Numbered from the stretch's first letter, positions 5,984 to 59,989 are shown. The stretch: DNA of 64,000 nucleotides from an uncultured Actinomycetota bacterium (GCA_963801015.1 CAWDCV010000002.1:1060118-1124117); one strand, 5' to 3'. Notes: generated by a model from the sequence alone, not told the origin. Program-made: numbers and translations.

Positions 5984-5990
5984 CGATCAC

Positions 5991-7705: not shown

Positions 7706-7715
7706 TCGACCTGCC

Positions 7716-33858: not shown

Positions 33859-33886
33859 AGCTGTTCCTGTGTCGAGGAGGCCCAAC

Positions 33887-34306: not shown

Positions 34307-34316
34307 CCGACCCTGA

Positions 34317-34742: not shown

Positions 34743-34796
34743 GGAGGAATTCTCCAGGAGAAGTTACGGGGGTCGGTCATCGGGTACGGCGCTCCC

Positions 34797-40001: not shown

Positions 40002-40375
40002 TTACTGGGCGGTGTAGCCGCCGTCGACGGGGAGGGCGACGCCGATGACGAAGCCGGCCCCCGGACTGCTCAGCCACAGCACCGAGGCCGCGATCTCCTC
40101 AGACGTGCCGAGCCGGTTGATGGGCTGGTTCGCCTTGGCGACCTCAAGGTCAAGTTCGCCTTTGTCGATCATGTCAGTGACCATCGGGGTGGCGATGGTG
40201 CCGGGACAGATAGCGTTGATCAGGATTCCGCGGGGGGCGTACTCGAGGGCCGCGCTGCGGGTGAGGCCGATGACGCCGTGCGGGCGGCGGCCAGACCCAT
40301 GCCGGAGCTGGCGCCGGTCACCAGCGCGACCTGGCCGGAGAAGTCATACGTCGGGTTCATCATCGAGCCTCTCAG
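40002..40375 (-). pseudogene. SDR family oxidoreductase remnant with internal deletion (~120 codons missing, frame broken)
   Basis: N-terminus MMNPTYDFSGQVALVTGASSGMGLAAAR (Rossmann TGxxxGxG) is joined directly, in a different frame, to the C-terminal ...HGVIGLTRSAALEYAPRGILINAICPGTIATPMVTDMIDKG...GRLGTSEEIAASVLWLSSPGAGFVIGVALPVDGGYTAQ*. The catalytic middle region is absent. Confidence 0.75.
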
Positions 40376-41403
40376 CTGGGTGCGGGTGAGGGTTGGAGGA
40401 GGACCTTGATGGCCTGACGCTGGTCCATGGCGGTGTAGGCGTCGGCGGCCTGGTCCAGCGGCAGGGTGAGGTCGAAGACCCGGCCGGGGTTGATCGTGCG
40501 GTTCCAGATCCGGTCGATCAGGTCGGGTAGGAACCGGCGGATTGGGGCGGGGCCGCCGTGGACGTGGACGTGGGTCATGAAGATGTCGTCGCCGGCGATG
40601 GCGACGTCATGGAGGACGCCGACGAAGCCGAGGTGCCCGCCGGGGCGGGTGGCGCCGATGGCCTGCATCATCGACTCCTGCGTTCCGACGGCCTCGACGA
40701 CCGAGTGTGCGCCGAGTCCGTCGGTGAGCTCCTTGACCTTGGCGATCCCGGCTTCGCCGCGTTCCTCGACGATGTCGGTGGCGCCGAACTCCCGCGCGAG
40801 GGCCTGCCGGTCGGCGTGCCGGGACATGGCGATGATGCGCTCGGCGCCGAGCTCCTTGGCGGCCAGGACGGCGAGCAGCCCGACGGCCCCGTCACCGACC
40901 ACGGCGACGGTCTTGCCCGGTCCGGCCTCGGCCGCCACGGCCCCGAACCAGCCGGTGCCCAGCACATCGGAGGCGGCCAGCAGGCTGGGAATCAGGTCCG
41001 CATCCGGCTGGCCCGGGGTGGCGACGAGCGTGCCGTCGGCCAACGGCACCCGCATCAGCTGCGCCTGCGACGGACCCGGGAAGTCGCGGTGGACGCAGTT
41101 GGTCTGATAGCCGGCCTGGCAGATCTCGCAGGTGTTGTCGGAGGCGAAGAACGACCCGACCACGAAGTCGCCGACCTTGACCTGCTCGACCTGGTCGCCG
41201 ACCTGCTCGACGACACCGACGTACTCATGCCCCATCGGTTTCGGCTCGTTGACGGCGTCGGCGCCGCGGTAGGGCCACAGGTCCGATCCGCAGACACACG
41301 CCGCGGCGAGCCGGATGATCGCATCCGTCGGCTGCTGGATCGTCGGCTCGGGCAGGTCCTCGACCCGGACATCACCGGGGGCATGCATCACAACACCACG
41401 CAT
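40372..41403 (-). CDS. zinc-dependent alcohol dehydrogenase family protein (MDR superfamily; formaldehyde/threonine dehydrogenase-like)
   Basis: GHEYVGVV zinc site, structural-zinc Cys cluster (CEICQAGYQTNC), VVGDGAVG NAD-binding motif. Confidence 0.8.
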   Translation of the reverse strand: MRGVVMHAPGDVRVEDLPEPTIQQPTDAIIRLAAACVCGSDLWPYRGADAVNEPKPMGHEYVGVVEQVGDQVEQVKVGDFVVGSFFASDNTCEICQAGYQTNCVHRDFPGPSQAQLMRVPLADGTLVATPGQPDADLIPSLLAASDVLGTGWFGAVAAEAGPGKTVAVVGDGAVGLLAVLAAKELGAERIIAMSRHADRQALAREFGATDIVEERGEAGIAKVKELTDGLGAHSVVEAVGTQESMMQAIGATRPGGHLGFVGVLHDVAIAGDDIFMTHVHVHGGPAPIRRFLPDLIDRIWNRTINPGRVFDLTLPLDQAADAYTAMDQRQAIKVLLQPSPAPS

Positions 41404-41475: not shown

Positions 41476-41517
41476 GTGGGATGCCCTGTCGTGGGGTGTA
41501 CCACCAGGGCATCCCAC
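41476..41517. promoter_or_regulatory. 13-bp perfect palindrome arms (gtgggatgccctg N16 cagggcatcccac) in the divergent promoter region between the ADH gene and the MmyB-like regulator; candidate operator
   Basis: Seen directly; 33 nt upstream of the regulator start codon. Confidence 0.4.
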
Positions 41518-41549
41518 GTTCACGGCCCGGCGTCGTAGCGTCGTATGTC

Positions 41550-42431
41550 GTGGACAACCGTGACGAGGTCCGCGAGTTCCTCATCTCGCGGCGAGCCAAG
41601 ATCACCCCGGCTGAAGCCGGCCTGCCGACCCACGGCGCTCGGCGGGTACCCGGGCTGCGCCGGGCCGAGGTTGCGGCGCTGGCCGGGGTCAGCGTCGAGT
41701 ATTACGCCAAGCTCGAACGCGGCACGATCGCCGGTGCCTCCGCGTCCGTGCTCGACGCGATCGCCCGCGCCCTCCGGCTCGACGACGCTGAACGCGCCCA
41801 CCTGTTCCATCTCGCCCACGCCGCCGACGGCACCATCGCCAGCATGCGGCCCCGCCGAACCCCGAAACGCTGGCAACCCCGGCCGAGCCTGCAATGGGTG
41901 CTCGATGACTTCACCGCCCCGGCGATCGTCCGCAACGGCCGGATGGACCTGCTCGCCGCCAACCACCTCGGCCGAGCCATGCACGCCACCGTCTACGAGG
42001 CGACGGGCGACCCGGTGCCGAACTTCGTCCGGTTCACCTTCCTGCACCTCGACGACGCCGACGACTTCTACTCCGACTGGGACCTCGCCGCCGACACCAG
42101 CGTCGCCATCCTGCACACCGAAGCCGGCCGCGACCCGCACGACAAAGATCTGCACGACCTCGTCGGCGAGCTGTCCACCCGCAGCGACGACTTCCGGCGC
42201 CGCTGGAGCAGCCGCAACGTCCGCAGCCACGGCGCCGGCACCAAACAGTTCCACCACCGCGACGTCGGCGACCTCGAGCTCGCCTACGAGAGCCTGGACA
42301 TGATCGCCGATCCCGGACTCACCCTCACCCTCTACGCCGCCGAACCAGGCTCGCCCACCGCCAGCGCCCTCGCCCTGCTGGCTTCCTGGTCCAGCCCCAC
42401 CGTCACACCGTCACCGACCGCCACCTTGTGA
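41550..42431 (+). CDS. MmyB-like helix-turn-helix transcriptional regulator
   Basis: VDNRDEVREFLISRRAKITPAEAGLP...RRVPGLRRAEVAALAGVSVEYYAKLERG (XRE HTH) plus the MmyB-like ligand-binding C-terminal domain (AIVRNGRMDLLAANHLGRA...). Confidence 0.8.
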   Translation: MDNRDEVREFLISRRAKITPAEAGLPTHGARRVPGLRRAEVAALAGVSVEYYAKLERGTIAGASASVLDAIARALRLDDAERAHLFHLAHAADGTIASMRPRRTPKRWQPRPSLQWVLDDFTAPAIVRNGRMDLLAANHLGRAMHATVYEATGDPVPNFVRFTFLHLDDADDFYSDWDLAADTSVAILHTEAGRDPHDKDLHDLVGELSTRSDDFRRRWSSRNVRSHGAGTKQFHHRDVGDLELAYESLDMIADPGLTLTLYAAEPGSPTASALALLASWSSPTVTPSPTATL

Positions 42432-42569
42432 GATCCGCGCCGCGGGCTGGGTGTACCAGCGGTACGTGCCAGGCCAGGGTGTTCCTCACCACATGGGACG
42501 CTCCTGGCGTCGACGACGTGTGCTTCAGCACCCAGGCGAGCGCGATGGCCGCCATGGAGGGCTGTGTAC

Positions 42570-43340
42570 CTCAGGCTTGCGAGGTGGGCATGGCCCACAG
42601 CTCGGCCACCGACGAGCGGCGGGGTCGGGTGACCATGTAGGTGATGCCATCGGCGATATCCTCGGGCTGCAGCGGTTCGGGATGTTCTCGGCGTCGGAGG
42701 CGGCGAGGTTGTCACGGATCTGCTGGTTGTTGTGGGAGACAAGCTCGGTAGCCACGGCGCCGGGCTCGAGGACGCCGACGCGTACGTGCTTCTTCGTGAC
42801 CTCTTGACGGAGGGCCTCGGTGAAGCCGTTTACGCCGAACTTCGTCATGTTGTAGACGCCGAAGTTCGCCCAGGCCTGGCGGCCGGCGATCGAGGAGATG
42901 TTCACGATGTCGGCGACTCCGCGCGGCCCGTCCTGTGCTGCGGTCAGCAGGTGCGGGAGGGCGGCGTGGGTGACGTAGAGCAGGCCTTTCTGGTTGATCG
43001 CGATCATCCGTTCCCATTCCTCGATGTCGGCGCTGGCTACAGGGCCCAGCAGCATTAGTCCGGCGTTGTTGATGAGGATGTCGAGCCGGCCGAAACGGTC
43101 CACGACGGTTTGTACGGCCTGCTCGGCCTGGGCCCGGTCGGTGATGTCCGCCTCGACGGCCAACACCGTCGCGCCGGTCGCCTCGATCTCGGACACGAGG
43201 GTGTCCAGCCGGTCTTTGCGGCGAGCGAGGACGGCGACGCTCGCGCCGTGCTCGGCGAGCCGGCGAGCGGTCGCCTCCCCGATGCCGCTGCTGGCCCCGG
43301 TCACGATCGCGACCGTCCCGGTCAGCGTGGTGATGTTCAT
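42570..43340 (-). pseudogene. SDR family oxidoreductase with apparent frameshift near 42679 (C-terminal ~35 aa in the adjacent frame)
   Basis: MNITTLTGTVAIVTGASSGIGEA..., YxxxK active site (YNMTKFG); the expected C-terminus EPLQPEDIADGITYMVTRPRRSSVAELWAMPTSQA* is read in the -1 frame after a ccc/ggg run where one more base is expected. Confidence 0.75.
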
Positions 43341-44182
43341 GAGGCGTCGTAAGCCAGCGAGGCCGACAGGTCGCGGTGGGCGTCGATCTGGCCCTGGATC
43401 GTTGCCAGGTTCTGCTCGACCCCGGTCATCACATCGGCGCCGGCGAGGAAGCGCAGTGGCAGGTCGCCGGAGTCGGACAGGGTGACGAGTGCGGAGGCGA
43501 GCTTGCTCGGGTCGCCGCCCTGCTGGCCGTTCATTCCTTTCCACGCCGTGATGGTCTGTGCGGTGCGCTCGGCGTAGTCCGCGATGTCCAGCTCGGGCCA
43601 GATCGTCGACGACCCCTCGACCAGCAGTTCGGTGCGGAAGAAGCCGGGCTCGACCGCCATCGTCGTGATGCCGTACGGGGCGACGTCGTAGCGCAGCGAC
43701 TCCATCCAGCCCTCGAGGGCGAACTTCGACGGGGCGTACGCGGCGCAGAACTCCTGCCCCATCAGCCCGGCGGCCGAGGTCACCGTGATCACCTGCCCGG
43801 AACGCTGTGCACGCATGATCGGCAGGACCGCCCGGGTGACGTTGAGCGGACCGAAGAAGTTGGTCTCCATCTGCGCCCGCAGCTGCTCGGGGCTGATGTT
43901 CTCGAAGTAGCCGGCGTAGAAGTTGCCTGCGTTGTTCACCAGGACGTCGATACGTCCGAAACGCTCGACCGCCGCCTGGACGGCCGCGTCGATCGTGGCC
44001 GGGTTGGTGACGTCCAGGGCGACGGCGAACAGCTCCTCATGCTCACCGACCGCAGCCCGCACCTTGTCGGCATCACGGCCGGTCGCGACCACGGCGTGGC
44101 CGCCGGCCAGCGCGGCCCGCACGATGTCGACGCCCAGGCCACGGCTGGAGCCGGTGACGAACCAGACCTTCTTCTCACTCAT
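43337..44182 (-). CDS. SDR family oxidoreductase
   Basis: MSEKKVWFVTGSSRGLG..., NNAG motif, YAPSKFA catalytic Tyr/Lys; the stop overlaps the start of the downstream SDR by 4 nt. Confidence 0.8.
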   Translation of the reverse strand: MSEKKVWFVTGSSRGLGVDIVRAALAGGHAVVATGRDADKVRAAVGEHEELFAVALDVTNPATIDAAVQAAVERFGRIDVLVNNAGNFYAGYFENISPEQLRAQMETNFFGPLNVTRAVLPIMRAQRSGQVITVTSAAGLMGQEFCAAYAPSKFALEGWMESLRYDVAPYGITTMAVEPGFFRTELLVEGSSTIWPELDIADYAERTAQTITAWKGMNGQQGGDPSKLASALVTLSDSGDLPLRFLAGADVMTGVEQNLATIQGQIDAHRDLSASLAYDAS

Positions 44183-44344
44183 AGGTTGTCCTTCAGCTGG
44201 TGAAGGTCGGTGTCTGGATGACGCCCGACCCCGACCGGTGGGTGCTTTCAGTGAATCCGCTCGCATCACGTCGAGGGAGACCCGCGTTATAGGGGTACTC
44301 CTGGTGACCCCTTCGGCTCGGACTGCCGCCGTAGGCTCCCGGAC

Positions 44345-45250
44345 ATGGACGTCCGGCAGGACCTGCGCGAGTTCCTCACCACGAGGCGTGCCCGGCTCGC
44401 TCCGCAGGACGTGGGGCTGCCCGACTTCGGCGGACGTCGCCGCGTCCCCGGCCTGCGACGCGAGGAGGTCGCGCTGGTGGCCGGAGTGAGCGTCGAGTAC
44501 TACGTCCGCCTCGAACGCGGCAACGCCACCGGGATCTCAGAATCCGTGCTCGACGGCGTCGCCCGAGCCCTCCAGCTCGACGACGCCGAACGCGCCCACC
44601 TGTACGGACTCGTCCGGGCCGCGAACGACGGCGCCCACCCCAGCAAGCGTCGCACCCGTCCCCGATCCCAACCGGTCCGTCCCGGCGTGCAGCAGCTGCT
44701 CGACGCCATCGAGAACGTGCCCGCGATCGTGCAGAACGGACGCCTGGACGTCCTCGCGGCCAACCGGCTCGGACGGACCCTATTCTCCGAGCTCCACGAA
44801 CACGCGCCGGCCAACTTCGCCCGCTACGTCTTTCTCGACCCGCGCGCCCAGATCTTCTACCGCAGTTGGCCCGACGCCGCCCAGCAGACCGCCGCCATCC
44901 TCCGCACCGAAGCCGGACGGGTGCCGCACGACCGCGCGCTTAGCGACCTCGTCGGCGAACTCGCCACCCGCAGCGAGGACTTCCGGGCCCTCTGGGCCTC
45001 CCACGACGTCCGCGACCACCGCACCGGCAGGAAGTCGATCACCCACCCAGTCGTCGGCGACCTCGACCTCGACTACGAGCTGATGGACCTGACCACCGAC
45101 CGCGGACTCACCCTCATCACCTACACCGCAGCGCCTGGCTCCGCGTCGCACGATGGACTCCGACTCCTCAGCAGCTGGACCATGCCCGATCACGCGACCA
45201 GAAGGGACCAGACGACGCCCGTCGACGGGAGCCGACTCGAGAGCCAATGA
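44345..45250 (+). CDS. MmyB-like helix-turn-helix transcriptional regulator (paralog)
   Basis: MDVRQDLREFLTTRRARLAPQDVGLPDFGGRRRVPGLRREEVALVAGVSVEYYVRLERG; about 45% identical by eye to the regulator at 41550. Confidence 0.8.
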   Translation: MDVRQDLREFLTTRRARLAPQDVGLPDFGGRRRVPGLRREEVALVAGVSVEYYVRLERGNATGISESVLDGVARALQLDDAERAHLYGLVRAANDGAHPSKRRTRPRSQPVRPGVQQLLDAIENVPAIVQNGRLDVLAANRLGRTLFSELHEHAPANFARYVFLDPRAQIFYRSWPDAAQQTAAILRTEAGRVPHDRALSDLVGELATRSEDFRALWASHDVRDHRTGRKSITHPVVGDLDLDYELMDLTTDRGLTLITYTAAPGSASHDGLRLLSSWTMPDHATRRDQTTPVDGSRLESQ

Positions 45251-49145: not shown

Positions 49146-49616
49146 TCAGTCCGTCGGGTGCTCGGCGCGTCCGGCCCGGCCCGCCGCGAGCGCCGCCAGC
49201 CGGACGGTCATCTCGGACAGCCGCTGCCGCAGCAGCGCGTCGAACAGCGGGTTGTTGAGCCAGGCCCCGGGTCCGCTCGTCGGCGTCTCCTCGAGCCGGA
49301 GCAGGCAGCGCACGCCTCGCTGCTCTGCGCTGATCGCTATCCGGGCTTCGCCGAGCGGCCAGCCGCGGGCGCGGACGACCAGCCGCGATGGCTCGATCGA
49401 CTCGAGGACCTCGGTGTAGTCCTCGATGAGCATTGGCCACGCGCCCACCGAATGGTGTATACGCGTCCCCACCTGCGGCCAGGCGGGGTCGACGGAGCGG
49501 ATCTTCGAGGTGCCGACCACCCACGCGGAGTAGGTCCACCCGTCCGACAGCACGGCCCAGATCTCGGTTGCGCTCGCCTCGACTTCGCGTTCGACGCTCG
49601 CCATGGCACCTCCCAC
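49146..49616 (-). CDS. SRPBCC family protein (polyketide cyclase/dehydrase-like)
   Basis: MASVEREVEASATEIWAVLSDGWTYSAWVVGTS... is a typical SRPBCC signature. Confidence 0.7.
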   Translation of the reverse strand: MGGAMASVEREVEASATEIWAVLSDGWTYSAWVVGTSKIRSVDPAWPQVGTRIHHSVGAWPMLIEDYTEVLESIEPSRLVVRARGWPLGEARIAISAEQRGVRCLLRLEETPTSGPGAWLNNPLFDALLRQRLSEMTVRLAALAAGRAGRAEHPTD

Positions 49617-49883
49617 CGTCTCCCTCGCTCCTACCCCGCCGCGATGATCCCATGATCGCCCACGCCGGCTTTACGAGAAGTTCTCGGCGAAAGCGTTTCC
49701 CCGAAACGTTCGCGGGGCACGACTTCTTCTCGGCAGTTCTTCTCGGCACATCCACGGCGGTACCGCTTCGGACATAGGCGCTCCGCGACGCAATTGGCCT
49801 CACGAGGGCGCTTGACCACGGAGAACGCATTGGCGCAGCCGAATACATGCGGGGCGGCCGGGGCGCGGCCGCGGCCACAGCTC

Positions 49884-50393
49884 GTGCTGTTCGATCGCGA
49901 TGGCACGCTCGTTCACGACGTCCCCTACAACGGGGATCCGGAGCAGGTGCAGCCGGTACGCGGGGCAGCCGAGGCGCTGCGCCGCTTGCGGGAGCGCGGG
50001 ATCGCCACCGGTATCGTCAGCAACCAGTCCGGAATCGCCCGCGGGCTGCTGACCGTCGACGACGTCGAGGCCGTTACGGAGCGCGTCGAGCAGCTGCTGG
50101 GCCCGTTCGACACTCGCCAGTACTGCCCCCACGGCGCCGACGATGGGTGCGGGTGCCGCAAGCCCGCGCCCGGCATGATCATCGATGCCGCTGCAGATGT
50201 CGGCGTGCCGCCGAGTGAGTGCGCCGTCATCGGCGACATCGGCAGCGACGTTTCGGCGGCTCTTGCCGCCGGCGCCCGAGCCATCCTCGTCCCCACGCCC
50301 GTCACCCGCCGGGACGAGGTCGCGGCCGCGCCTGAGGTAGCCAGCGACCTGGGTGAGGCGGTCGACCTCCTACTGCTCAGCGCGTGCCGATGA
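49884..50393 (+). CDS. gmhB: D-glycero-beta-D-manno-heptose-1,7-bisphosphate 7-phosphatase (HAD-IIIA)
   Basis: LFDRDGTLV (HAD motif I), GIVSNQSG, the zinc-binding CxHxxxxxCxC cluster (CPHGADDGCGC) and IGD motifs; the start is ambiguous (GTG 49884; an out-of-frame ATG at 49854 sits within G-runs). Confidence 0.8.
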   Translation: MLFDRDGTLVHDVPYNGDPEQVQPVRGAAEALRRLRERGIATGIVSNQSGIARGLLTVDDVEAVTERVEQLLGPFDTRQYCPHGADDGCGCRKPAPGMIIDAAADVGVPPSECAVIGDIGSDVSAALAAGARAILVPTPVTRRDEVAAAPEVASDLGEAVDLLLLSACR

Positions 50394-51412
50394 GACGCGT
50401 CCTGGCCGTTCGTCTCGACAGCGACGGTGACGTCCTGCTCGCCGGCCCGGCGATCCGCGCCCTGGCGGCGGCCGGCAGCGTCACGCTGCTGTGCAGCCCG
50501 CGCGGCCGGCAAGCCGCCGAGCTCCTTCCCGGCGTCGACGGCGTCGTGGTGTGGCGCTGCCCGTGGATCGAGGCACAGCCGGACCCCGTCGACCGGGCTG
50601 CCATCGACGCGCTCGTCACTCGGCTCCGGGTAGCCGACCTGGACGAGGCGGTCGTCTTCACCTCGTTCCACCAGTCGGCGCTGCCTACAGCCCTCCTGCT
50701 CCGGCTCGCTGGGGTACGGCGAATCAGCGCGATCAGCGAGGACTATCCCGGAGCGCTGCTCGACGTCCGTCACCGCATCGACGACAGCACCCCGGCATCG
50801 GACGTTCCAGAGTCCGAGCGCGCGCTCTCCCTCGCCGCGGCGGCCGGCTTCCCGCTGCCCACGCAGGATGACCGGCGGTTGGCCGTACGACGACCGTTAC
50901 CGGCGACGACGTCGCTGACGGGCGCTGAGCCGTACGTCGTCCTTCACCCGGGCGCATCCGTCCCGGCGCGCGCCTGGCCCGCGCATCGTGCCGCCGAGAC
51001 AGTCGTCGCTCTCGCCGAGCGCGGCGTGCGCGTCGTCGTCACCGGAAGCCGGGACGAGAAGGAACTGACCGCCGGCGTGGCGGGCGTCGACGCCGTCGAC
51101 CTCGGCGGCCGGACGACGTTCGCTGAGTTGGCGGGCGTGCTCGCCGGCGCCGAGGCCGTGATCGTTTCGAACACCGGCCCGGCCCACCTGGCCGCCGCGG
51201 TCGGCACTCCGGTCGTGTCCCTGTTCGCGCCGACCGTCCCCGCGGCGCGCTGGGCACCGTACGGCGTTCCCGCTGTCGTGCTTGGCGACCATGCCGCGCC
51301 CTGCCGCGGCAGCCGCGCGACGACGTGCCCGGTGCCCGGTCACCCGTGCCTGTCGTCCGTCACGGCGGCCGACGTCCTGGCCGCTCTCGATCGATTGCGT
51401 GCGGGCCCATGA
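50390..51412 (+). CDS. glycosyltransferase family 9 (ADP-heptose-dependent heptosyltransferase, WaaC/WaaF-like)
   Basis: MRRVLAVRLDSDGDVLLAGPAIRAL... and a C-terminal GT-B half with VSNTGPAHLAAAVGTPVVSLFAPT; overlaps the gmhB stop. Confidence 0.8.
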   Translation: MRRVLAVRLDSDGDVLLAGPAIRALAAAGSVTLLCSPRGRQAAELLPGVDGVVVWRCPWIEAQPDPVDRAAIDALVTRLRVADLDEAVVFTSFHQSALPTALLLRLAGVRRISAISEDYPGALLDVRHRIDDSTPASDVPESERALSLAAAAGFPLPTQDDRRLAVRRPLPATTSLTGAEPYVVLHPGASVPARAWPAHRAAETVVALAERGVRVVVTGSRDEKELTAGVAGVDAVDLGGRTTFAELAGVLAGAEAVIVSNTGPAHLAAAVGTPVVSLFAPTVPAARWAPYGVPAVVLGDHAAPCRGSRATTCPVPGHPCLSSVTAADVLAALDRLRAGP

Positions 51413-52371
51413 GGGTCCTGCTCTGGCACGTGCACGGCTCGTGGACGACATCGTTCGTCCAAGGCCCGCACACCTACCTCGTCCCGGTGACCGCCGACCG
51501 CGGGCCGGACGGGCTCGGCCGGGCCCGGACGTACGACTGGCCGGCCTCCGTGGTCGAGGTCACGGCCGCCCAGTTGCGACAGGAGGACGTCGACGTCGTC
51601 GTCCTGCAACGTCCGCACGAGGCCGGACTCGCTGAGGGTTGGCTCGGCCGGCGGCCCGGACGCGACGTGCCGGCGGTCTACGTCGAGCACAACACGCCCA
51701 AGGGCGAGATCCTCGCGGCGCGGCATCCGGTCGCCGACCGCGATGACCTCACTCTCGTCCACGTCACCCACTTCAACCGGCTGTTCTGGGACAACGGGCG
51801 CGCACCGACCACCGTCATCGAACACGGCGTCGTCGACCCGGGCGCTCGCTACACCGGCGAGCTTCCCCGGGCTGCAGTCGCCATCAACGAGCCGATCCGC
51901 CGCTGGCGCGTCACCGGTACTGACCTGTTGCCCGCGTTCGCCGCCGCCGCGCCGGTCGACGTTTTCGGGATGCGAACTGCAGACCTCGCGGAGACACTTC
52001 AGCTCGGGCCGGACCGGCTCGCGACCTACGACCTGCCGCAGGAGGAACTGCACGACCAGATGGCGCAGCGCCGGGTCTACATCCACCCCATCCGGTGGAC
52101 CTCGCTCGGCCTGTCGCTGCTCGAGGCGATGCACCTCGCCATGCCCGTCGTGGTGCTTGCCAGCACGGAAGCGGTCGAGGCGGTCCCGCCTGACGCCGGC
52201 GTGATCTCGACGCGCCTTGATGTGCTTACCGCGGCCGTCCGCGCCTACGTCGCTGACCCAGACCACGCCAGGGAGATGGGGCAGCAGGCGCGGCGCGCGG
52301 TCCTCGCCCGGTACTCCCTTCAGCGATTCCTGGACGACTGGGAACTGCTGCTCAAGGAGGTGACTCGATGA
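51409..52371 (+). CDS. glycosyltransferase (GT-B fold, GT4/GT1-like)
   Basis: MRVLLWHVHGSWTTSF...LGLSLLEAMHLAMPVVVLAST; ATGA overlap with the GT9 stop. Confidence 0.7.
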   Translation: MRVLLWHVHGSWTTSFVQGPHTYLVPVTADRGPDGLGRARTYDWPASVVEVTAAQLRQEDVDVVVLQRPHEAGLAEGWLGRRPGRDVPAVYVEHNTPKGEILAARHPVADRDDLTLVHVTHFNRLFWDNGRAPTTVIEHGVVDPGARYTGELPRAAVAINEPIRRWRVTGTDLLPAFAAAAPVDVFGMRTADLAETLQLGPDRLATYDLPQEELHDQMAQRRVYIHPIRWTSLGLSLLEAMHLAMPVVVLASTEAVEAVPPDAGVISTRLDVLTAAVRAYVADPDHAREMGQQARRAVLARYSLQRFLDDWELLLKEVTR

Positions 52372-53606
52372 AGATCGCGATGGTCTCCGAACATGCCAGC
52401 CCGCTGGCGACCCTGGGGGGCGTCGACGCGGGCGGGCAGAACGTGCACGTGAGCGAGCTGGCGCAAGCACTCGCCCGCAGGGGCCATGCGGTGACGGTCT
52501 ATACCCGTGACGAGGGAACGTTCCCCGATCGGCGCATCCTCATGGCGCCGGGTGTCACGATCGAGCACGTGCCCGCCGGGCCGCGCGCCGTCCTCTCCAA
52601 GGACGAATTGCTGCCTCATATCGGCGATTTCGGCCGCTACCTCGCCGCCGCCTTCGACCGCGAGCGCCCCGACATCGTGCACGGCCACTTCTGGATGTCG
52701 GGGCTCGCCTGCTTGATGGCGACCAAGGACACGTCGGTGCCGGTCGTGCAGACCTTTCACGCGCTCGGCGTCGTCAAGCGTCGCCACCAGGGCGTTCGCG
52801 ACACCAGTCCGGAACATCGGCTGCGCCTCGAGCAGGGCGTCGCCCGTGGGGTCGATCGAGTCATTGCGACCGCCTCCGACGAGGTGTTCGAGCTGATGCG
52901 GATGGGGGTAAGGCGGCCGGAAATCAGCGTGGTGCCCTGCGGGGTCGACGTCGACCACTTCCAGCCTGACGGCCCGACCCTGCCGCGAGGCGAGCTGCAC
53001 CGCCTCGTGATCGTGGGTCGCCTCGTCCAGCGCAAGGGCGTCGACGACGTGATCCGCGCCCTCGCGCTCGTACCGCGGACTGAGCTGCTGATCGCAGGCG
53101 GTCCCGACGTGGCCGAGCTAGGCGATGACTCCGAGGTACGGCGGCTCATCCTGCTCGCGGCGAAGATGCGCGTGCTTGATCGGGTGAGGTTGCTCGGCCG
53201 CGTCTCGCGGTCCGAGCTCCCGGCGCTGCTGAGGTCCGCCGACATCGTCGTCTGCATGCCCTGGTACGAGCCGTTCGGCATGGTGCCGCTGGAAGCCATG
53301 GCGTGCGGGCGTCCCGTCGTGGCGTCGGCCGTCGGCGGCATCGTCGACACCGTCGTCGACGGCGCGACCGGAACGCTGGTCCGGCCGCAACGCCCGGACA
53401 TGCTCGCCCACGCGCTGCGGCGGCTGCTCGCCGATCCGGTGCGGCGCGCGGGGTACGGCCTCGCCGGGCGAGAACGCGCGGCCATGCGCTACCGCTGGGA
53501 CCGCATCGGCGCCGAGACCGAGTCGGTGTACGCGTCCGTACTGGGACTCGATGCTGACATGGCATCCGCACCGGACGCTGACGAGATGATCGAGGTGGCC
53601 CGATGA
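52368..53606 (+). CDS. glycosyltransferase family 4 (MshA/PimA-like retaining GT)
   Basis: MKIAMVSEHASPLATLGGVDAGGQNVHVSELAQALARRGHAVTVYT..., EPFGMVPLEAMACGRPVVAS; ATGA overlap. Confidence 0.8.
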   Translation: MKIAMVSEHASPLATLGGVDAGGQNVHVSELAQALARRGHAVTVYTRDEGTFPDRRILMAPGVTIEHVPAGPRAVLSKDELLPHIGDFGRYLAAAFDRERPDIVHGHFWMSGLACLMATKDTSVPVVQTFHALGVVKRRHQGVRDTSPEHRLRLEQGVARGVDRVIATASDEVFELMRMGVRRPEISVVPCGVDVDHFQPDGPTLPRGELHRLVIVGRLVQRKGVDDVIRALALVPRTELLIAGGPDVAELGDDSEVRRLILLAAKMRVLDRVRLLGRVSRSELPALLRSADIVVCMPWYEPFGMVPLEAMACGRPVVASAVGGIVDTVVDGATGTLVRPQRPDMLAHALRRLLADPVRRAGYGLAGRERAAMRYRWDRIGAETESVYASVLGLDADMASAPDADEMIEVAR

Positions 53607-54241
53607 CCGCGGTCGGAGGGATGGCCCGAACCCCGTTGCCGCTCGGCGCCGCCCACGTGACGGCGCTCTCGGATGCGCTGCTCCGGTTCGGCGATTGCGT
53701 GGACACCGCGCAGCGCTGGGGTGAGCAGCTCGCCCAGATGCTGGCGGGTGGCGCCCGGTTGCTGGCCGTCGGCAATGGTGGCAGTGCCGCTCAGGCCCAG
53801 CACCTGACCGCGGAGCTCGTCGGTCGCTATCGCGACGACCGGCCGCCGTTCTCGGCCATCGCGCTCCACGCGGAGACGTCGAGCTTCACCGCCATCGCCA
53901 ACGACTACGGCATGCAGGAGGTGTTCGCCCGGCAGGTGCTCGCGCACGGTCGCCGCGGCGATGTCCTGGTCGCGCTCTCAACGAGTGGCACCTCGCCCAA
54001 CGTGGTCGCCGCCGTTCGCGCCGCGCGCGACCTCGACATCACGACCTGGGCGATGACGGGACCCGTGCCGAACCCACTGGCCGGGCTCGCCGACGACGCG
54101 CTCAGCGTGGATGCCGCGGCGACCGCGACGGTGCAGGAGCTGCACCTGGTCGCCGTCCATCTCGTCTGCGCGGCGTTCGACTGGGCACTGGCGTGCTCCG
54201 ATGGCGACTACCAGACCAACGGGAAGGGGGTCGTCGCGTGA
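53603..54241 (+). CDS. gmhA: D-sedoheptulose-7-phosphate isomerase (SIS domain)
   Basis: SIS motifs (LLAVGNGGSAAQAQHLTAEL, DVLVALSTSGTSPNVV); ATGA overlap upstream and GTGA overlap downstream. Confidence 0.85.
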   Translation: MTAVGGMARTPLPLGAAHVTALSDALLRFGDCVDTAQRWGEQLAQMLAGGARLLAVGNGGSAAQAQHLTAELVGRYRDDRPPFSAIALHAETSSFTAIANDYGMQEVFARQVLAHGRRGDVLVALSTSGTSPNVVAAVRAARDLDITTWAMTGPVPNPLAGLADDALSVDAAATATVQELHLVAVHLVCAAFDWALACSDGDYQTNGKGVVA

Positions 54242-55602
54242 GGGATGCACCTCTGGTCGTCGTCGGCGACCTGCTACTCGACCGCGACCTCGATGGAACG
54301 GCGCGCCGGCTGAGCCCGGACGCGCCTGTTCCCGTGGTGGACCGGCCGACCGAACAGGTCCGAGCCGGCGGAGCCGGGCTTGCCGCCACGCTCGCGGCGA
54401 ATGACGGGCGCGACGTAATCCTCGTCGCGGCGGTGGCCGACGATGCGGCCGGCGCGACGGCACGGTCCCTGCTCGCCGAGCGCGGCGTACGCCTGATCGC
54501 CGTACCCCGGACCGGTGGAACGCCGGAGAAGGTGCGTATCCGCGCCGACGGTCACCCGCTCGCTCGCGTCGACCATGGCGGGGATGGCGTGCCGACGGAG
54601 CTGCCCGATGCGGGGAAAGATGCCCTGCTCTCGGCGGCGGCCGTGCTGGTGTCCGACTATGGCTACGGAACGGCCGCCCTTCCGGCGCTGCGCGAGCTGC
54701 TGGGTCGACCGTCACGGACGCCGGTGATCTGGGACCCGCATCCGCGAGGGCCCGGACCCGTATCGGGGGTCCGGCTGGCGACGCCCAGCGATGCCGAGGC
54801 GAGGCACTTCAGTGGTGAAACGGACGGCCACGACCTCGCCTCGGTCACCGCTCGGGCGGCACGCCTGGTCGCGGATTGGCAGGCAGCCGCGGTCGCGATC
54901 ACTCTCGGACGGCGCGGCGCGCTGCTGTCGACCGGTGATGGCACGCCGCTGGTGATTCCCGCACCGGCGGTGACGTGCGTCGACCCCTGCGGCGCGGGCG
55001 ACCGGTTCGCCGCGAGCGCGGCCGGCCTGCTGGCCGATGGCGCGCTGCCGTCGGAGGCGGTGCACGGCGCGGTCTTCGCAGCCGCGGCATTCGTCGCAGC
55101 AGGCGGCGCGTCGGCAGCTCTCCGCGACGTGCCGGATCCCGCGTCAGCGGTCGGCGAGGACGTCGTTGCTGCCGTACGGCGACGCGGCGGTGTCGTCGTG
55201 GCGACCGGCGGATGCTTCGACCTGCTCCACGCGGGGCACGTGGCAAGTCTGGAAGCCGCCCGGTCACTCGGCGACTGCCTCGTCGTCTGCCTCAACTCCG
55301 ACGCGTCTATCCGCCGGCTCAAGGGACCGTCGAGACCGGTGGTGACGCAGGAGGACCGGCAGCGCGTCCTGGCGGCGCTGTCGTGCGTCGATGCGGTCGT
55401 CATCTTCGACGAGGACACGCCGGAGCGGCTGCTCGGCGAACTCCGTCCGGACATCTGGGCGAAGGGTGGCGACTACGCCGAGCGCGCGCTTCCCGAATCT
55501 CGCCTGGTCGCCGGCTGGGGGGGCCAGGCCGTCGTCCTGCCGTACCTCGACGGTCGATCGACCACCCGACTCCTCGAGCTCTCTATGAAGGGACCCCAAT
55601 GA
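54238..55602 (+). CDS. hldE: bifunctional heptose-7-phosphate kinase / heptose-1-phosphate adenylyltransferase (copy 2, in the cluster)
   Basis: pfkB kinase half (VVGDLLLDRD...GAGDRFAASA) plus adenylyltransferase half (ATGGCFDLLHAGHVASLEAA, VVLPY); paralog of 34797..36272. Confidence 0.85.
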   Translation: MRDAPLVVVGDLLLDRDLDGTARRLSPDAPVPVVDRPTEQVRAGGAGLAATLAANDGRDVILVAAVADDAAGATARSLLAERGVRLIAVPRTGGTPEKVRIRADGHPLARVDHGGDGVPTELPDAGKDALLSAAAVLVSDYGYGTAALPALRELLGRPSRTPVIWDPHPRGPGPVSGVRLATPSDAEARHFSGETDGHDLASVTARAARLVADWQAAAVAITLGRRGALLSTGDGTPLVIPAPAVTCVDPCGAGDRFAASAAGLLADGALPSEAVHGAVFAAAAFVAAGGASAALRDVPDPASAVGEDVVAAVRRRGGVVVATGGCFDLLHAGHVASLEAARSLGDCLVVCLNSDASIRRLKGPSRPVVTQEDRQRVLAALSCVDAVVIFDEDTPERLLGELRPDIWAKGGDYAERALPESRLVAGWGGQAVVLPYLDGRSTTRLLELSMKGPQ

Positions 55603-55666
55603 CTCTGCATCCCGCCTACCTCCATCGACTGCGCTCCAGCTGTGTGCTCGCGACGGAGGTCGGCTC

Positions 55667-56350
55667 ATGACAACCGGCACCGTCCTCGTGACCGGTGGCT
55701 CCTCCGGCCTCGGCGCTGCCACCGTGGCTGCCATCGCGGCGGCCGGCGGCCGGCCCGTCGTCTTGGATCGCCAGCCACCGCCCTCCGATACCGACTTCGA
55801 GCTCGTCGACCTCGCTGACGCCCGGGCCGCCGAGGTGTCGACTCGCGCGCTCGCCGATCGCGTGGGCGGCCTGGACGGCGTCTTCACTGCGGCCGGCGTC
55901 GATCGCTGCGGCATGCTCGCCGACGTCCCCGGCGACGAGTGGGACTGGGTGATCAAGGTCAACCTGCTCGGAACCGCCGCCGTGGTCCGGGCCGCCCTGC
56001 CGTACCTGCTGCGTTCCCACGGCCGGGTCGTGACCTGCGCCTCGACCCTCGGCCTGCGCGCCGTGAGCGACGCGACGGCGTACTGCGCGTCGAAGTTCGG
56101 CGTCGTCGGGTTCACCCGCGCGCTCGCCACGGAGACGCAGGGCACCATCGGAGTCACGATGCTCGTGCCAGGCGGCATGCACACGTCGTTCTTCGACGAC
56201 CGCGAGGAGAAGTACCGCCCACCGGCTGACGCGAAGCTGAACCGGCCCGAGGACGTCGCGCAGGCCGTGGTGTTCGCGCTGTCGCAGCCGTCCGGCTGCG
56301 AGGTGCGCGAGCTGGTCGTCACGCCGTCGCGCGAGTCGTCCTGGCCGTGA
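55667..56350 (+). CDS. SDR family oxidoreductase (classical short-chain, 227 aa)
   Basis: VLVTGGSSGLGAA Rossmann motif, YCASKFG catalytic motif; embedded in the heptose/GT cluster. Confidence 0.75.
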   Translation: MTTGTVLVTGGSSGLGAATVAAIAAAGGRPVVLDRQPPPSDTDFELVDLADARAAEVSTRALADRVGGLDGVFTAAGVDRCGMLADVPGDEWDWVIKVNLLGTAAVVRAALPYLLRSHGRVVTCASTLGLRAVSDATAYCASKFGVVGFTRALATETQGTIGVTMLVPGGMHTSFFDDREEKYRPPADAKLNRPEDVAQAVVFALSQPSGCEVRELVVTPSRESSWP

Positions 56351-57303
56351 CAGGCGGTCGAGTTCTCGTCCTTCGCGCCCTCGGCCTGGGGGACCTGCTC
56401 ACGGCCGTACCCGCGCTGCGCGGACTGCGTCGAGCGCTGCCCGCCGCCGAAATCGTCCTCGCCACCGACCCTGCTCTCCAGCCGCTCGTGGACCTCAGCG
56501 GGGCGGTCGACGTCGTGCTGCCGGCGCGCGGGCTGGGCCGGCTGTCGTGGTTGGGTCCCCCACCGGCAGTGGCGGTCAACCTGCACGGCTGCGGTCCGCA
56601 GAGCCACGACACGCTCGCTGCGCTACAGCCGGACGAGTTGTGGGCGTTCGCGACCGGGTCGTACCCAGGGCCACCGTGGCAACCCCCGGACGGCGAAGAG
56701 CATGAAGTCGAAAGGTGGTGCCGGCTGCTCGCGGCGTACGGCGTTGCGACTGACCCCGCTGACTTCGACCTGGACCGGCCGGTGGGCGTCGAGAGCCCCG
56801 CGCCCGGAGCAGTGGTGATCCACCCGGGAGCGGGTTACGCCAGCAAGCGGTGGCCGGCAGAGCGGTTCGCGACGGTGGCGCGCAGCCTTCGCTCGCGCGG
56901 GTGCCGCGTCGTGATCACCGGCTCGCGGCACGAGCTGCCCATCGCCACGCAGGTCGCGCACCTCGCGGGCCTCACGCACGAGGACATGCTGGCGGGGAAG
57001 ACGTCAATCGCGTCGTTGGCCGCGCTCGTCGCTGACGCCTCGCTCGTGGTGTGCGGCGACACCGGCATCGGCCACCTGGCCACGGCGTACGCGACCCCAT
57101 CGGTGCTGCTGTTCGGACCATCGTCGATCGCCGAATGGGGGCCGCCGCCGTCCCGATCGGCGCACGTGGTGCTGCGCCACCCGACCGCCGGAAGCGTGGA
57201 CCCACGCGGCGACACAGTCGATCCAGGCCTGCTCGCGCTCACCGTCGACGATGTCCTTGAGGCTGCGCCGCTGGCCGGGCTGCTTGAGGGGGCAGTCAGC
57301 TAG
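56347..57303 (+). CDS. glycosyltransferase family 9 (heptosyltransferase-like), second copy
   Basis: MTGGRVLVLRALGLGDLLTAVPALRGLRRALPAAEIVL... and VCGDTGIGHLATAYATPSVLLFGP; GTGA overlap with the SDR gene. Confidence 0.8.
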   Translation: MTGGRVLVLRALGLGDLLTAVPALRGLRRALPAAEIVLATDPALQPLVDLSGAVDVVLPARGLGRLSWLGPPPAVAVNLHGCGPQSHDTLAALQPDELWAFATGSYPGPPWQPPDGEEHEVERWCRLLAAYGVATDPADFDLDRPVGVESPAPGAVVIHPGAGYASKRWPAERFATVARSLRSRGCRVVITGSRHELPIATQVAHLAGLTHEDMLAGKTSIASLAALVADASLVVCGDTGIGHLATAYATPSVLLFGPSSIAEWGPPPSRSAHVVLRHPTAGSVDPRGDTVDPGLLALTVDDVLEAAPLAGLLEGAVS

Positions 57304-57324: not shown

Positions 57325-57723
57325 TCATGGTGCAACAACGAGAAGGCCAGTGTGGCTGGCGAGCAGCTCGAAGTCGCGGTCGGCGTGGAGTACCTGGAGT
57401 TCCGCGCGGTGCGCCACCGCCGCGATGAGGCAATCGGACAACGCGCGGACGGTGGCTCCGCCGCGTCGGCAGCGGCGGTAGAGAGCGGCAGCTTCCTCAA
57501 AGTCGGCGAGTCCCTCGACAGGGACGAGATGGCAACGCGCCAGCATCCGGCGCAGTCGCTGGAGATGCACGTCGTCGCGAGCTCCCGCCAGCATCTCCAT
57601 GACGATCACGTCGGTGGTCGCGACCGGCACCTCGTCCTCAACGAGCTGGCGAACGGCGTGATGTGTTGCTGTGCCCGTCGCCCGAAGGAACTCCACCCAG
57701 GCGGAGGTGTCAATGAGAATCAC
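57325..57723 (-). CDS. vapC: type II toxin-antitoxin system VapC family toxin (PIN domain RNase)
   Basis: MILIDTSAWVEFLR...D..E...ADRDFE acidic PIN residues; 4-nt overlap with the upstream antitoxin gene. Confidence 0.85.
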   Translation of the reverse strand: MILIDTSAWVEFLRATGTATHHAVRQLVEDEVPVATTDVIVMEMLAGARDDVHLQRLRRMLARCHLVPVEGLADFEEAAALYRRCRRGGATVRALSDCLIAAVAHRAELQVLHADRDFELLASHTGLLVVAP

Positions 57724-57947
57724 GGTGCGCGATGCGCTCGATCGGTCCTCAGCTGCGCGAGGTCGCTATCCCACCCACTGCCTTCCATGTCCAGCGCCTC
57801 ATCACGGGTCAACGCTTCTCCCACCAGCCGGCGAAGCGCTAGCTCGACGGCGGCTCGCTTGGACGGCAGGCTGTAGCGCCGCATCGCCTCCTCCACCAGC
57901 ACATCGTCGATCTCGATATTGGTGCGTGTCACGACACCACGATACAC
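57720..57947 (-). CDS. vapB: type II toxin-antitoxin system VapB family antitoxin
   Basis: (V)TRTNIEIDDVLVEEAMRRYSL... matches the VapB/DUF2191-like antitoxin N-terminus; the true start is probably the GTG at about 57932. Confidence 0.8.
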   Translation of the reverse strand: MYRGVVTRTNIEIDDVLVEEAMRRYSLPSKRAAVELALRRLVGEALTRDEALDMEGSGWDSDLAQLRTDRAHRAP

Positions 57948-58544: not shown

Positions 58545-58922
58545 ATGACCCCACAGGATGTGGTGCAGAGATTCTGGGCCGCGATTGCGGCGCGCGACTG
58601 GGCGAGCATGGCCGACCTGCTCCACCCCGACGTCGTCGTCGAGTGGCCGGCGAGCGGTGAGCGCATCGTCGGACGAGACAACGTCGTAGCCGTCAACCGT
58701 GAGTACCCCGAAGGCTGGGCCATCGACGTGCTCCGGGTGATCGGTGACGACGACGTGGTCGTCTCTGAGGTCGAGGTGCCGCACCAAGGGCTCGGCGTGT
58801 TCCGGGCCGCATCGTTCTGGACAGTCCGCGACGGGTTGATCGTCTCGGGGCGGGAGTACTGGATCGGCGTCGGCGCCGAGGAGCCGCCGGCGTGGCGGTC
58901 TGCGTACGCCGAGAAGGTGTGA
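58545..58922 (+). CDS. nuclear transport factor 2 family protein (SnoaL-like)
   Basis: MTPQDVVQRFWAAIAARDWASMADLLHPDVVVEWPASGERIVGRDNV... is a SnoaL-like signature. Confidence 0.75.
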   Translation: MTPQDVVQRFWAAIAARDWASMADLLHPDVVVEWPASGERIVGRDNVVAVNREYPEGWAIDVLRVIGDDDVVVSEVEVPHQGLGVFRAASFWTVRDGLIVSGREYWIGVGAEEPPAWRSAYAEKV

Positions 58923-58960
58923 GTCGTTTGCGGCCGGCAGGCAGGGGTACGCGGCGCCCT

Positions 58961-59989
58961 ATGCGGATCGTGGTGACGGGCGCGAGCGGCAACGTGGGCA
59001 CAGCGCTGCTGCGGCGGGCCGCAGCCGATGGCGATGTCGATGTCGTCGGTATCGCGCGTCGTCGTCCCGACGAGTCGGCGGCGCCGTACGCGGGCGCCAC
59101 CTGGGTGACGTGCGACGTCGGTGAATCCACCTCGATCAGCACACTCATCGACGCGATGCGGGGCGCCGATGCGGTTGTCCATCTCGCCTGGCAGATCACG
59201 CCCTCGCGCGATGAGCCGGCGATGCGGCGGACCAACGTCCACGGCTCGCGGCAGGTCGCGACAGCAGCGGTGTCCGCCGACGTCCCTCACCTCGTGCACA
59301 TGTCGTCAGTCGGTGCGTACTCGCCAGGGCCGCATGCCCGCCGAGTCGACGAATCGTGGCCGACCGATGGCGTCGAGACGTCTACGTACAGCCGCCACAA
59401 GTCGACCGCCGAGCGCCACCTCGACACCGTCGAGCGCGACAACCCCGAGCTCGTCGTAACGCGCGTCCGACCGTCACTGATCTTCCAGCGGGACGCGGGC
59501 AGCGAAGTTGGCCGCTACTTCCTCGGCCCGGTGCTCGCTGCCGCCGCCTCGCCGCTGCTCAAACTGTCGACGCCGATCCTGCCGGTGCCTGCGCGGCTAC
59601 GGCTGCAAGCGGTCCACGCCGACGACGTCGCCAGCGCACTCGTGCAGATCGTCCGCCGCCGCGCCGGGGGCGCGTTCAACCTGGCGTCGGAGCCGGTCGT
59701 CCGGGCCGTGGATCTCGCCCAGCTGCTGGGTGCGCGGCTGGTCGATACGTCACCAGCCGTCGTCCGGCGCGCGGCCGACCTGTCGTTCCGTACGCATATT
59801 CAGCCGACCGAGGCCGGTTGGTTCGACATGGCCATGTCAGCGCCGCTGCTCGACACGACCCGTGCCCGCGAGGCGCTGGAGTGGACGCCGACCGTCGACG
59901 CCAAGGATGCGGTGAAGGAGATCCTCACCGGGGTGGCCGAAGGCGAGGGCGCCGATAGCGCACCGATGGAGCCCCGCGGCGACGCGTGA
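58961..59989 (+). CDS. NAD-dependent epimerase/dehydratase family protein
   Basis: MRIVVTGASGNVGTALL Rossmann motif, YSRHK catalytic motif; start placed at ATG 58961 inside the longer track ORF. Confidence 0.75.
   Translation: MRIVVTGASGNVGTALLRRAAADGDVDVVGIARRRPDESAAPYAGATWVTCDVGESTSISTLIDAMRGADAVVHLAWQITPSRDEPAMRRTNVHGSRQVATAAVSADVPHLVHMSSVGAYSPGPHARRVDESWPTDGVETSTYSRHKSTAERHLDTVERDNPELVVTRVRPSLIFQRDAGSEVGRYFLGPVLAAAASPLLKLSTPILPVPARLRLQAVHADDVASALVQIVRRRAGGAFNLASEPVVRAVDLAQLLGARLVDTSPAVVRRAADLSFRTHIQPTEAGWFDMAMSAPLLDTTRAREALEWTPTVDAKDAVKEILTGVAEGEGADSAPMEPRGDA

Follow-up and report, generated by a model that had tools for sequence, protein, structure and literature searches.

In the literature, ADP-heptose is reviewed as a Gram-negative precursor of lipopolysaccharide (LPS) and as an agonist of innate immunity, the Gram-positive exceptions being the Streptomyces antibiotics septacidin and hygromycin B (PMC10221265). 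A 2024 study in Science, as related in PMC11461863, found heptose-nucleotide enzymes to be widespread across kingdoms. Another actinobacterial system is the cwg operon of S. coelicolor, cwgA-L (SCO6179-6190), which papers citing the original work (PMC6767563, PMC5839063) trace to Hong, Paget and Buttner in 2002. This operon depends on sigma-E/CseBC and is induced by vancomycin (PMC6767563). It is also up-regulated in an argR mutant (PMC5839063), while cwgE, there a putative heptosyltransferase, is up in the envelope mutant ppm1 (PMC5882110) and cwgA is induced by salt (PMC13011467) and by cold shock (bioRxiv 10.1101/2025.04.11.648403). Its product is still termed a "putative cell wall glycan" in papers to 2026. 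Here, we describe an operon related to cwg in a stretch of 64,000 nucleotides from an uncultured Actinomycetota bacterium (GCA_963801015.1, CAWDCV010000002.1:1060118-1124117; the whole stretch is hereafter called the window). Eight plus-strand genes, spanning about 49830-57303 and identified by Pfam and NCBIfam models, encode a predicted ADP-heptose pathway, four glycosyltransferases and a classical SDR:

49830 to 50393 (start uncertain), plus strand, gmhB-like HAD-IIIA phosphatase, counterpart of cwgD (best NCBIfam match, GmhB)
50390 to 51412, plus strand, GT9a, family 9 glycosyltransferase, counterpart of cwgE (PF01075, 103.5 bits)
51409 to 52371, plus strand, short GT4-like retaining GT-B glycosyltransferase of 320 amino acids, counterpart of cwgF (Glycos_transf_1, 35 bits)
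52368 to 53606, plus strand, GT4 retaining glycosyltransferase, counterpart of cwgG (Glycos_transf_1, 130 bits; Glyco_transf_4, 120 bits)
53603 to 54241, plus strand, gmhA, sedoheptulose-7-phosphate isomerase, counterpart of cwgH (SIS_2, 81 bits)
54238 to 55602, plus strand, hldE, bifunctional heptose-7-phosphate kinase/heptose-1-phosphate adenylyltransferase, counterpart of cwgI (PfkB, 87 bits; CTP_transf_like, 65.5 bits)
55667 to 56350, plus strand, classical SDR of 227 amino acids (adh_short, 120.9 bits)
56347 to 57303, plus strand, GT9b, family 9 glycosyltransferase, counterpart of cwgJ (PF01075, 105.3 bits)

Judged by sequence and gene order, what is present here is the core of the cwg operon of actinobacteria, cwgD-J (SCO6182-6188), together with a lineage-variable SDR. 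In the ten Streptomyces loci compared, the block comprises up to 12 genes (all 12 in 7/10) in the order extended-SDR dehydratase, carbamoyltransferase, GT2, HAD, GT9, GT-B, GT4, GmhA, HldE, GT9, GT2, GT2. This order matches gene for gene the published annotations of cwgA-L (PMC5839063), which label cwgD "dehydratase", cwgH "phosphoheptose isomerase" and cwgI "bifunctional synthase/transferase", the remaining genes being "transferases". In the S. violaceorubidus locus (L065), the published sigma-E promoter of cwg (sequence from PMC6767563) is found at 27/29 nucleotides, about 220 nucleotides upstream of the first gene. The window carries HAD, GT9, GT-B, GT4, GmhA, HldE and GT9 in the order of cwgD-J, with 54-70% identity to the Streptomyces proteins. 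It departs from the Streptomyces operon in that a classical SDR gene separates hldE from the final GT9 gene and in that it is devoid of cwgA (nucleotide-sugar dehydratase/epimerase), cwgB (carbamoyltransferase), cwgC (GT2), cwgK and cwgL (both GT2). The proteins of these five genes found no match in the 64-kb window, except that the HAD part of the GT2-HAD query matched gmhB. Since five cwg genes are absent and seven are matched in order, the window holds the cwgD-J core plus the SDR.

The distribution of this core was examined with one genome per species. Orthologues of GT9a, sharing 59-68% identity, occur in at least 581 species genomes of Actinomycetota, in every major order and in Thermoleophilia, and close homologues are counted in thousands, all of them actinomycete where a source is given. 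The loci compared here are the best 80 of these at least 581 species plus one Thermomonospora locus (81 loci), in which gene presence was determined by tblastn with the window proteins. The best 80 belong to the Pseudonocardiales, Streptosporangiales, Micromonosporales, Geodermatophilales and Frankiales, but also to Nocardia, Nocardioidaceae, Jiangella, Streptomyces, Micrococcales and the deep class Thermoleophilia. GT9a is accompanied by GT4 in 74 of the 81 loci, by GmhA in 73, by HldE in 72 and by GT-B in 70, while GT9b is present in 64 loci and the SDR in 54. Gene order is mostly constant and the exact eight-gene order of the window is found again in Micromonosporaceae. The recurrence of this order throughout the phylum shows that the arrangement is not due to chance. 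The eight proteins are nearly equidistant from every sampled order (55-62% mean identity), so that the lineage can be placed as an actinomycete but not assigned to an order. A locus labelled "Candidatus Melainabacteria" (L031; CAWFTJ010000007.1, 1.6 Mb) was considered as a case of spread outside the phylum and rejected; it is probably a mislabelled bin because its GC content is 70.5% and its gene order is actinobacterial.

Gene content, orthology and conservation can be read directly from these loci, and few glycan operons of Actinomycetota are as widely conserved as this cluster. A first-pass annotation of the window had presented it as an unusual fusion of an LPS-type pathway with glycosyltransferase genes in a Gram-positive bacterium and had proposed a synteny comparison across Actinobacteria. 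The comparison recovers the gene order, with core neighbours from GT9b to GT4 in 64-74 of the 81 loci, and shows the window to hold one more copy of an operon already known throughout the phylum. The functional part of that annotation (the pathway enzymes and the two GT9 proteins) is largely right, while the rarity that it implied is contradicted by the at least 581 species.

The layout is also as it had been described, with eight consecutive plus-strand genes joined mostly by ATGA/GTGA overlaps. Overlaps of four nucleotides are found at six of the seven junctions (50390, 51409, 52368, 53603, 54238 and 56347) and could reflect translational coupling. The sole junction without overlap, from hldE to the SDR gene, has a gap of 64 nucleotides, and a scan of the plus strand found no terminator-like site inside the eight-gene cluster. 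Some gene starts are less certain than others. For gmhB, gmhA and hldE, the uncertainty ranges from a few codons to 30: candidates for gmhB are TTG at 49794, 49812 and 49830 (the latter with GGAG seven nucleotides upstream) or GTG at 49884, gmhA possibly starts a few codons downstream of 53603, and hldE has an alternative GTG at 54193. By contrast, the starts of GT9a and GT-B are fixed by the lengths of their homologues (about 340 and 320 amino acids, respectively), which also indicate that the starts proposed by the lister of open reading frames (ORFs), 50384 for GT9a and 51325 for GT-B, are too early.

The operon is bounded by a divergent gene on its 5' side and by a convergent vapBC type II toxin-antitoxin pair on its 3' side:

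49146 to 49616, minus strand, SRPBCC gene, divergent from gmhB
49617 to 49829, intergenic, presumed promoter region between the divergent SRPBCC gene and gmhB
57325 to 57723, minus strand, vapC, PIN-domain toxin
57720 to 57947, minus strand, vapB, antitoxin

Scanning upstream of gmhB for the sigma-70 consensus gave no match. A plus-strand ORF at 57352-57876, beyond the end of the operon, was rejected as an antisense shadow of vapC.

The first-pass annotation had called for profile searches with GmhA, GmhB and HldE. In these searches, GmhA, a bifunctional HldE and a GmhB-like HAD are each the best family matches, and the catalytic motifs of all three appear intact. The NCBIfam equivalog cutoffs are 178 bits for GmhB, 276 for GmhA, 345 for HldE domain I and 181.5 for HldE domain II. 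The HAD-IIIA phosphatase scores 122 bits against the GmhB model (cutoff 178), a match from which its anomer or substrate specificity is not readable. Its best solved relative is a D,D-heptose 1,7-bisphosphate phosphatase (4pnh, 81.8 bits), and it carries the DRDGT motif and a CPH...CxCRKP zinc loop. With the HAD part of a GT2-HAD protein from Thermomonospora, it shares 63.6% identity. In the corresponding locus (L001, 8502-10010), this GT2-HAD fusion replaces the separate gmhB gene; such fusions apparently occur in many further lineages, as judged from tblastn hit patterns and not domain by domain. HAD-GT9a fusion proteins of 508-520 amino acids are also found among metagenome homologues.

GmhA scores 166 and 160 bits against the NCBIfam phosphoheptose isomerase models, under the cutoffs (166 versus 276). 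It matches the solved GmhA of N. gonorrhoeae (5i01) with 133.5 bits, and the H..E and Q-E-x-H-x4-H active-site pattern is aligned. The adenylyltransferase half of the cluster HldE (rfaE domain II) scores 188.9 bits, over the curated cutoff of 181.5, while the kinase half is divergent (132.9 bits versus 345 for domain I) and retains the GAGD motif. Among solved structures, the C-terminal half of this HldE matches HldC (5x9q, 144.7 bits), and its N-terminal half has a weaker match to HldA (4e84, 71 bits).

The cluster had been said to be devoid of an HldD 6-epimerase. This can be extended to the whole 64-kb window, where no cwgA/HldD-like match was found. The NAD-dependent epimerase at 58892-59989 was tried as the missing HldD and rejected, since it does not match HldD and matches HpnA/OleD-like proteins best. 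As there is no 6-epimerase, the donor is probably the D,D-heptose form.

A second, unlinked hldE, also announced by the first-pass annotation, is indeed present upstream. Its product, HldE2, scores 357 bits against the HldE model (201 for domain II, over the cutoff, and 210 for domain I). It is 39% identical to the cluster HldE and nearer to canonical HldE than the cluster copy (357 versus 276 bits for the full protein, 210 versus 133 for the kinase). In the same way, its motif is the canonical GGAAN, against GGAGL in the cluster HldE. In the STTR5 motif, as reported by Tang et al. 2024 via PMC11461863, an Arg gives CDP/UDP-heptose synthesis. On a provisional count for STTR5, the fifth residue ahead of YLDGRSTT in the cluster HldE is Ala, and the fourth residue ahead of YVEDRSTT in HldE2 is Arg. 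In about a dozen of the 81 loci, an HldE2-like paralogue is encoded a few kb away from the cluster, at times beside a third GT9 gene (e.g., L002, L037 and L050). In the window, HldE2 closes a block (30773-36272) with stress-type genes upstream of it:

30773 to 32020, SpoIIE/PP2C phosphatase
32097 to 32597, SRPBCC protein
32729 to 33319, hemerythrin
33752 to 34306, ChaB plus Rho_N protein
34317 to 34763, minus strand, DUF4259 protein
34797 to 36272, plus strand, HldE2, unlinked bifunctional HldE paralogue (PfkB and CTP_transf_like domains)

Homologues of the ChaB/Rho_N and SRPBCC proteins also flank cwg-like clusters in Micromonosporaceae (L046, L057, L074 and L081).

The two family 9 glycosyltransferases share 39% identity across 163 amino acids. 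Both are full-length and keep the catalytic Asp; neither gene is truncated or inactive by sequence. On profile scores, they are Pfam GT9 members and not orthologues of WaaC, WaaF or WaaQ: against the HepI, HepII and HepIII models of NCBIfam (cutoffs of 185, 135 and 170 bits), GT9a scores 70, 66 and 69 bits, far under the cutoffs, and GT9b 91, 74 and 65 bits, also under all of them. The profile of GT9a orthologues was aligned to residues 2-284 of E. coli WaaC. D14, which corresponds to the catalytic D13 of WaaC, is present in 80 of 81 orthologues, whereas R194 and N261, both invariant in the 81 orthologues, stand at the positions of WaaC K192 and D261. In mutagenesis work, these two WaaC residues are reported to be important in donor binding. 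The C-terminus of GT9a carries an invariant Cys305-x7-Cys313-x4-His318-x-Cys320 motif (81 orthologues), probably a structural metal site, that GT9b does not have.

The best solved relatives of GT9b are 3tov (58.9 bits) and WaaF (1psw, 50.9 bits). Its D16 is present in all 56 orthologues aligned at this column, D238-T-G is invariant (63/63), and K or R is retained at the position of Lys192. With this canonical D-T-G donor motif, GT9b is the likeliest candidate for a heptosyltransferase in the operon.

The other two transferases are of the retaining GT4 type. In the short GT-B enzyme, only a C-terminal Glycos_transf_1 domain was matched by sequence. Its homologues have 320-322 amino acids, those of Streptomyces being 70-74% identical. 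Its AlphaFold model has a predicted local distance difference test score (pLDDT) of 73.6, and the best Foldseek matches are GlgM, PimB', BshA and the glucosyltransferase Tll1591 of Thermosynechococcus. The adjoining GT4 can be aligned over its full length with its best solved relatives, the sucrose-phosphate synthase Tll1590 of Thermosynechococcus (6kih, 218.8 bits) and the mycothiol enzyme MshA of C. glutamicum (164 bits). Both glutamates of its EX7E motif (E301 and E309) are invariant in 74 orthologues. Two basic residues of the acceptor site are kept: at the position of MshA K78 there is K in 70/74 and R in 3/74 orthologues, and R151, at the position of MshA R154, is invariant (74/74). K78 and R154 are reportedly phosphate binders in the MshA structure. 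GT4 differs from MshA by its score against the MshA model (239.5 versus a cutoff of 462.5 bits) and by an invariant Phe and Ala in its orthologues in place of Y110 and T134.

The SDR has generic SDR matches only among solved structures. It is located between hldE and GT9b in 54/81 loci (56-73% identity); the loci of Streptomyces and Geodermatophilaceae do not have it.

Compared with the heptosylation of the LPS inner core (GmhA, HldE, GmhB and HldD with WaaC/F/Q), the operon has similar donor enzymes with aligned active-site motifs and transferases of the same GT9 fold family with a conserved catalytic Asp. It differs from it by the lack of HldD in the window, by the scores of GT9a and GT9b (65-91 bits versus cutoffs of 135-185), by the Asn of GT9a at WaaC D261 and by the host lineage, a monoderm actinomycete. 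Furthermore, no Kdo (3-deoxy-D-manno-octulosonic acid) or lipid A gene was found among the window ORFs scanned.

The explanation that we favour, with a probability of about 0.62, is that the cwg core makes ADP-heptose and a heptose-containing oligosaccharide destined for a cell-envelope glycoconjugate. The catalytic motifs are directly seen to be intact; the enzymatic steps, the donor of each transferase, the acceptor and the envelope destination are predictions. From family membership, GmhA would convert sedoheptulose-7-phosphate to the 7-phosphate of D-glycero-D-manno-heptose, the kinase half of HldE would produce the beta-1,7-bisphosphate, and the GmhB-like HAD phosphatase would remove the 7-phosphate. 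Four soluble cytoplasmic GT-B transferases (two retaining GT4-type and two inverting GT9) would then assemble a short heptose-containing oligosaccharide, the presence of two transferases of each type suggesting that it is mixed. The destination is the weakest step: assembly of the envelope glycoconjugate would start from a lipid or a lipid-linked acceptor at the cytoplasmic face, and its export would depend on machinery encoded elsewhere. By analogy, the link with the envelope comes from the cwg literature, i.e., from sigma-E control and the ppm1, salt and cold data. All the characterised GT9 enzymes known to us act on membrane glycolipids. Sigma-E control in Streptomyces and these glycolipid acceptors lead us to favour an envelope glycoconjugate.

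It should be emphasized that several observations weigh against this explanation. In the papers found to August 2026, no cwg product is identified and no heptose is reported in an actinomycete wall, in agreement with the first-pass annotation, which had found no characterised acceptor. The pathway enzymes, HldE domain II excepted, score below the NCBIfam equivalog cutoffs, and the Asn of GT9a at the donor-binding Asp261 of WaaC suggests that GT9a may not use a heptose donor. None of the eight operon proteins has a convincing transmembrane segment. A priming phosphoglycosyltransferase, a flippase, a polymerase, an ABC exporter and an LCP ligase are all lacking in the window cluster. Likewise, no export, flippase, polymerase, priming, ligase or transporter family recurs around the cluster in the 81 loci, as far as a noisy ORF clustering can tell. 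The recurrent non-cluster families, named by eye and not by a Pfam scan, are an aldehyde dehydrogenase, a topoisomerase-IB-like protein, a UDP-glucose dehydrogenase, a pyruvyl-transferase-like protein, a ChaB/Rho_N protein, an SRPBCC protein and a small holin-like protein.

Regulation gives no more support. Unlike the S. coelicolor operon, the window has no sigma-E-type promoter motif: the strict AAC-N16-19-CGTC form is absent from 49400-49900, and a loose GAAAC...TTCTTC at 49703 is the only sigma-E-like trace upstream of gmhB. A motif of this type (AAC at -35, CGTCT at -10) lies upstream in 9 of 78 related loci, which is no enrichment. Given its absence in the window and its presence in so few other loci, the regulation known in Streptomyces is not transferable. 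An envelope glycoconjugate, one of the products that the first-pass annotation had proposed, stays the favoured one, while a conserved set without export, priming or wall-ligation genes weakens what had been the default explanation.

These missing functions can also be read in another way. The product could be a soluble cytoplasmic heptose-containing oligosaccharide or glycoside (e.g., a stress protectant or a storage compound) and not a wall polymer, which we consider possible but unlikely. A phosphate of heptose, sedoheptulose or inositol, for example, would serve GT4 as a small acceptor, and the other transferases would extend the product. The nearest characterised relatives of GT4, Tll1590 and MshA, glycosylate sugar or polyol phosphates, and the basic residues aligned with MshA K78 and R154 are kept in 73/74 and 74/74 orthologues; the matches themselves, in fold and sequence, are generic. 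Among the fold matches of the GT-B enzyme, GlgM, BshA and Tll1591 act on soluble acceptors, whereas characterised GT9 enzymes use membrane glycolipid acceptors. No function in membranes, export or ligation is encoded by the conserved set, but extended clusters contain genes of the polysaccharide-synthesis type (a pyruvyl transferase, a UDP-glucose dehydrogenase, a carbamoyltransferase and extra GT2s). In addition, there is one HAD domain per cluster and the ADP-heptose pathway already needs it. General-stress neighbours (SRPBCC, ChaB, hemerythrin and DUF2795 proteins) in the window and related loci, as well as the induction of cwgA by salt and cold in S. coelicolor, are consistent with a stress metabolite, while sigma-E control in Streptomyces points to the envelope. 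Although we know of no soluble heptose-oligosaccharide metabolite of such a kind, its most specific form would be an oligosaccharide begun by the sucrose-phosphate synthase/MshA-like GT4 on a phosphorylated sugar and extended by the GT9 enzymes, a scheme that we hold to be doubtful.

Whatever the acceptor, one or both GT9 proteins might not be heptosyltransferases at all, ADP-heptose being used otherwise (e.g., only by GT9b, or in a pathway in which HldE2 also takes part). Family GT9 also includes hexose and GlcNAc transferases. The invariant Asn261 and Arg194 of GT9a, where WaaC has Asp261 and Lys192, and the scores of both proteins, far under every heptosyltransferase equivalog cutoff, go in this direction, and two HldE paralogues hint at more than one use of the heptose nucleotide. 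Nevertheless, GT9a is fused to a GmhB-type HAD in some homologues, its gene directly follows gmhB with an ATGA overlap, and the canonical D-T-G is retained in GT9b, all of which makes this proposal improbable.

It is still less probable that the GT9 enzymes heptosylate proteins as TibC and AAH do, the product then being a heptosylated surface or cytoplasmic glycoprotein. ADP-heptose is the donor of the known protein heptosyltransferases, and their remote GT-B similarity extends to GT9a, which weakly matches the Aah/TibC model TIGR04414 (22.9 bits) and the TibC structures (16.8 bits, E = 0.026). GT9a also carries its invariant Cys3His motif, and TibC reportedly binds iron. This similarity is marginal: 22.9 bits is far under the Aah/TibC cutoff of 200, and GT9b has no match. 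Moreover, there is no autotransporter-type substrate nearby nor, in the 81 loci, any conserved candidate substrate protein adjoining the cluster, and two further GT4-type transferases suggest an oligosaccharide more than a single-sugar decoration.

Finally, the cluster could belong to a specialised metabolism like that of septacidin or hygromycin B, for which Streptomyces, also a Gram-positive actinomycete, uses this heptose nucleotide (PMC10221265; PMC9978623), and proteins with SnoaL-like and SRPBCC "polyketide cyclase" domains are encoded in the vicinity. Such a role is hardly credible and effectively excluded by a phylum-wide distribution with 55-70% identity and fixed order, since biosynthetic gene clusters are patchily distributed and those of septacidin and hygromycin B are strain-specific and have tailoring enzymes, whereas the flanks of the cwg core vary by lineage and contain no tailoring gene and no polyketide synthase, non-ribosomal peptide synthetase, aminotransferase, methyltransferase or resistance gene.

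The genes on either side of the operon are unrelated to it and encode MmyB-type regulators, SDRs, luciferase-like oxidoreductases and SRPBCC, DUF6158, SnoaL and DUF2795 proteins. Two MmyB-like transcription regulators (41481-42431 and 44345-45250) are each divergent from SDR/zinc-ADH genes (40372-41403, 42525-43544 and 43337-44269). On the minus strand, the ORF at 40002-40343, which adjoins a cupin gene, contains only the C-terminal third of an SDR (adh_short_C2 148-236), which suggests that the gene is a fragment or that its start was miscalled. Between 20000 and 23000, the GC content is locally up (0.73) with a GC skew of -0.13, and long ORFs overlap on both strands (19613-21382, minus; 20699-22939, plus), none of which passed the codon-position GC filter. 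A sugar-catabolism neighbourhood (551-10007), which also includes a DUF2252 protein, occupies the beginning of the window:

551 to 2299, MGH1-like mannosylglycerate hydrolase domain protein
2346 to 3566, ROK family protein
7716 to 10007, minus strand, GH36 alpha-galactosidase

Actinomycetota thus have, as a conserved feature, genes for a complete predicted ADP-heptose pathway together with GT9 transferases. The question of the cwg product is long-standing, more than 20 years having passed since the operon was named. The window adds one more copy, from an uncultured lineage, where it is no easier to test than in S. coelicolor. The comparison narrows the problem to a seven-gene core without a dedicated exporter, one of whose transferases, GT4, resembles glycosyltransferases acting on sugar phosphates. 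A soluble heptoside is a concrete alternative to the label of "cell wall glycan". If true, actinobacteria would make a class of stress metabolite not seen before, and GT9 enzymes would for the first time have an acceptor that is neither lipid nor protein.

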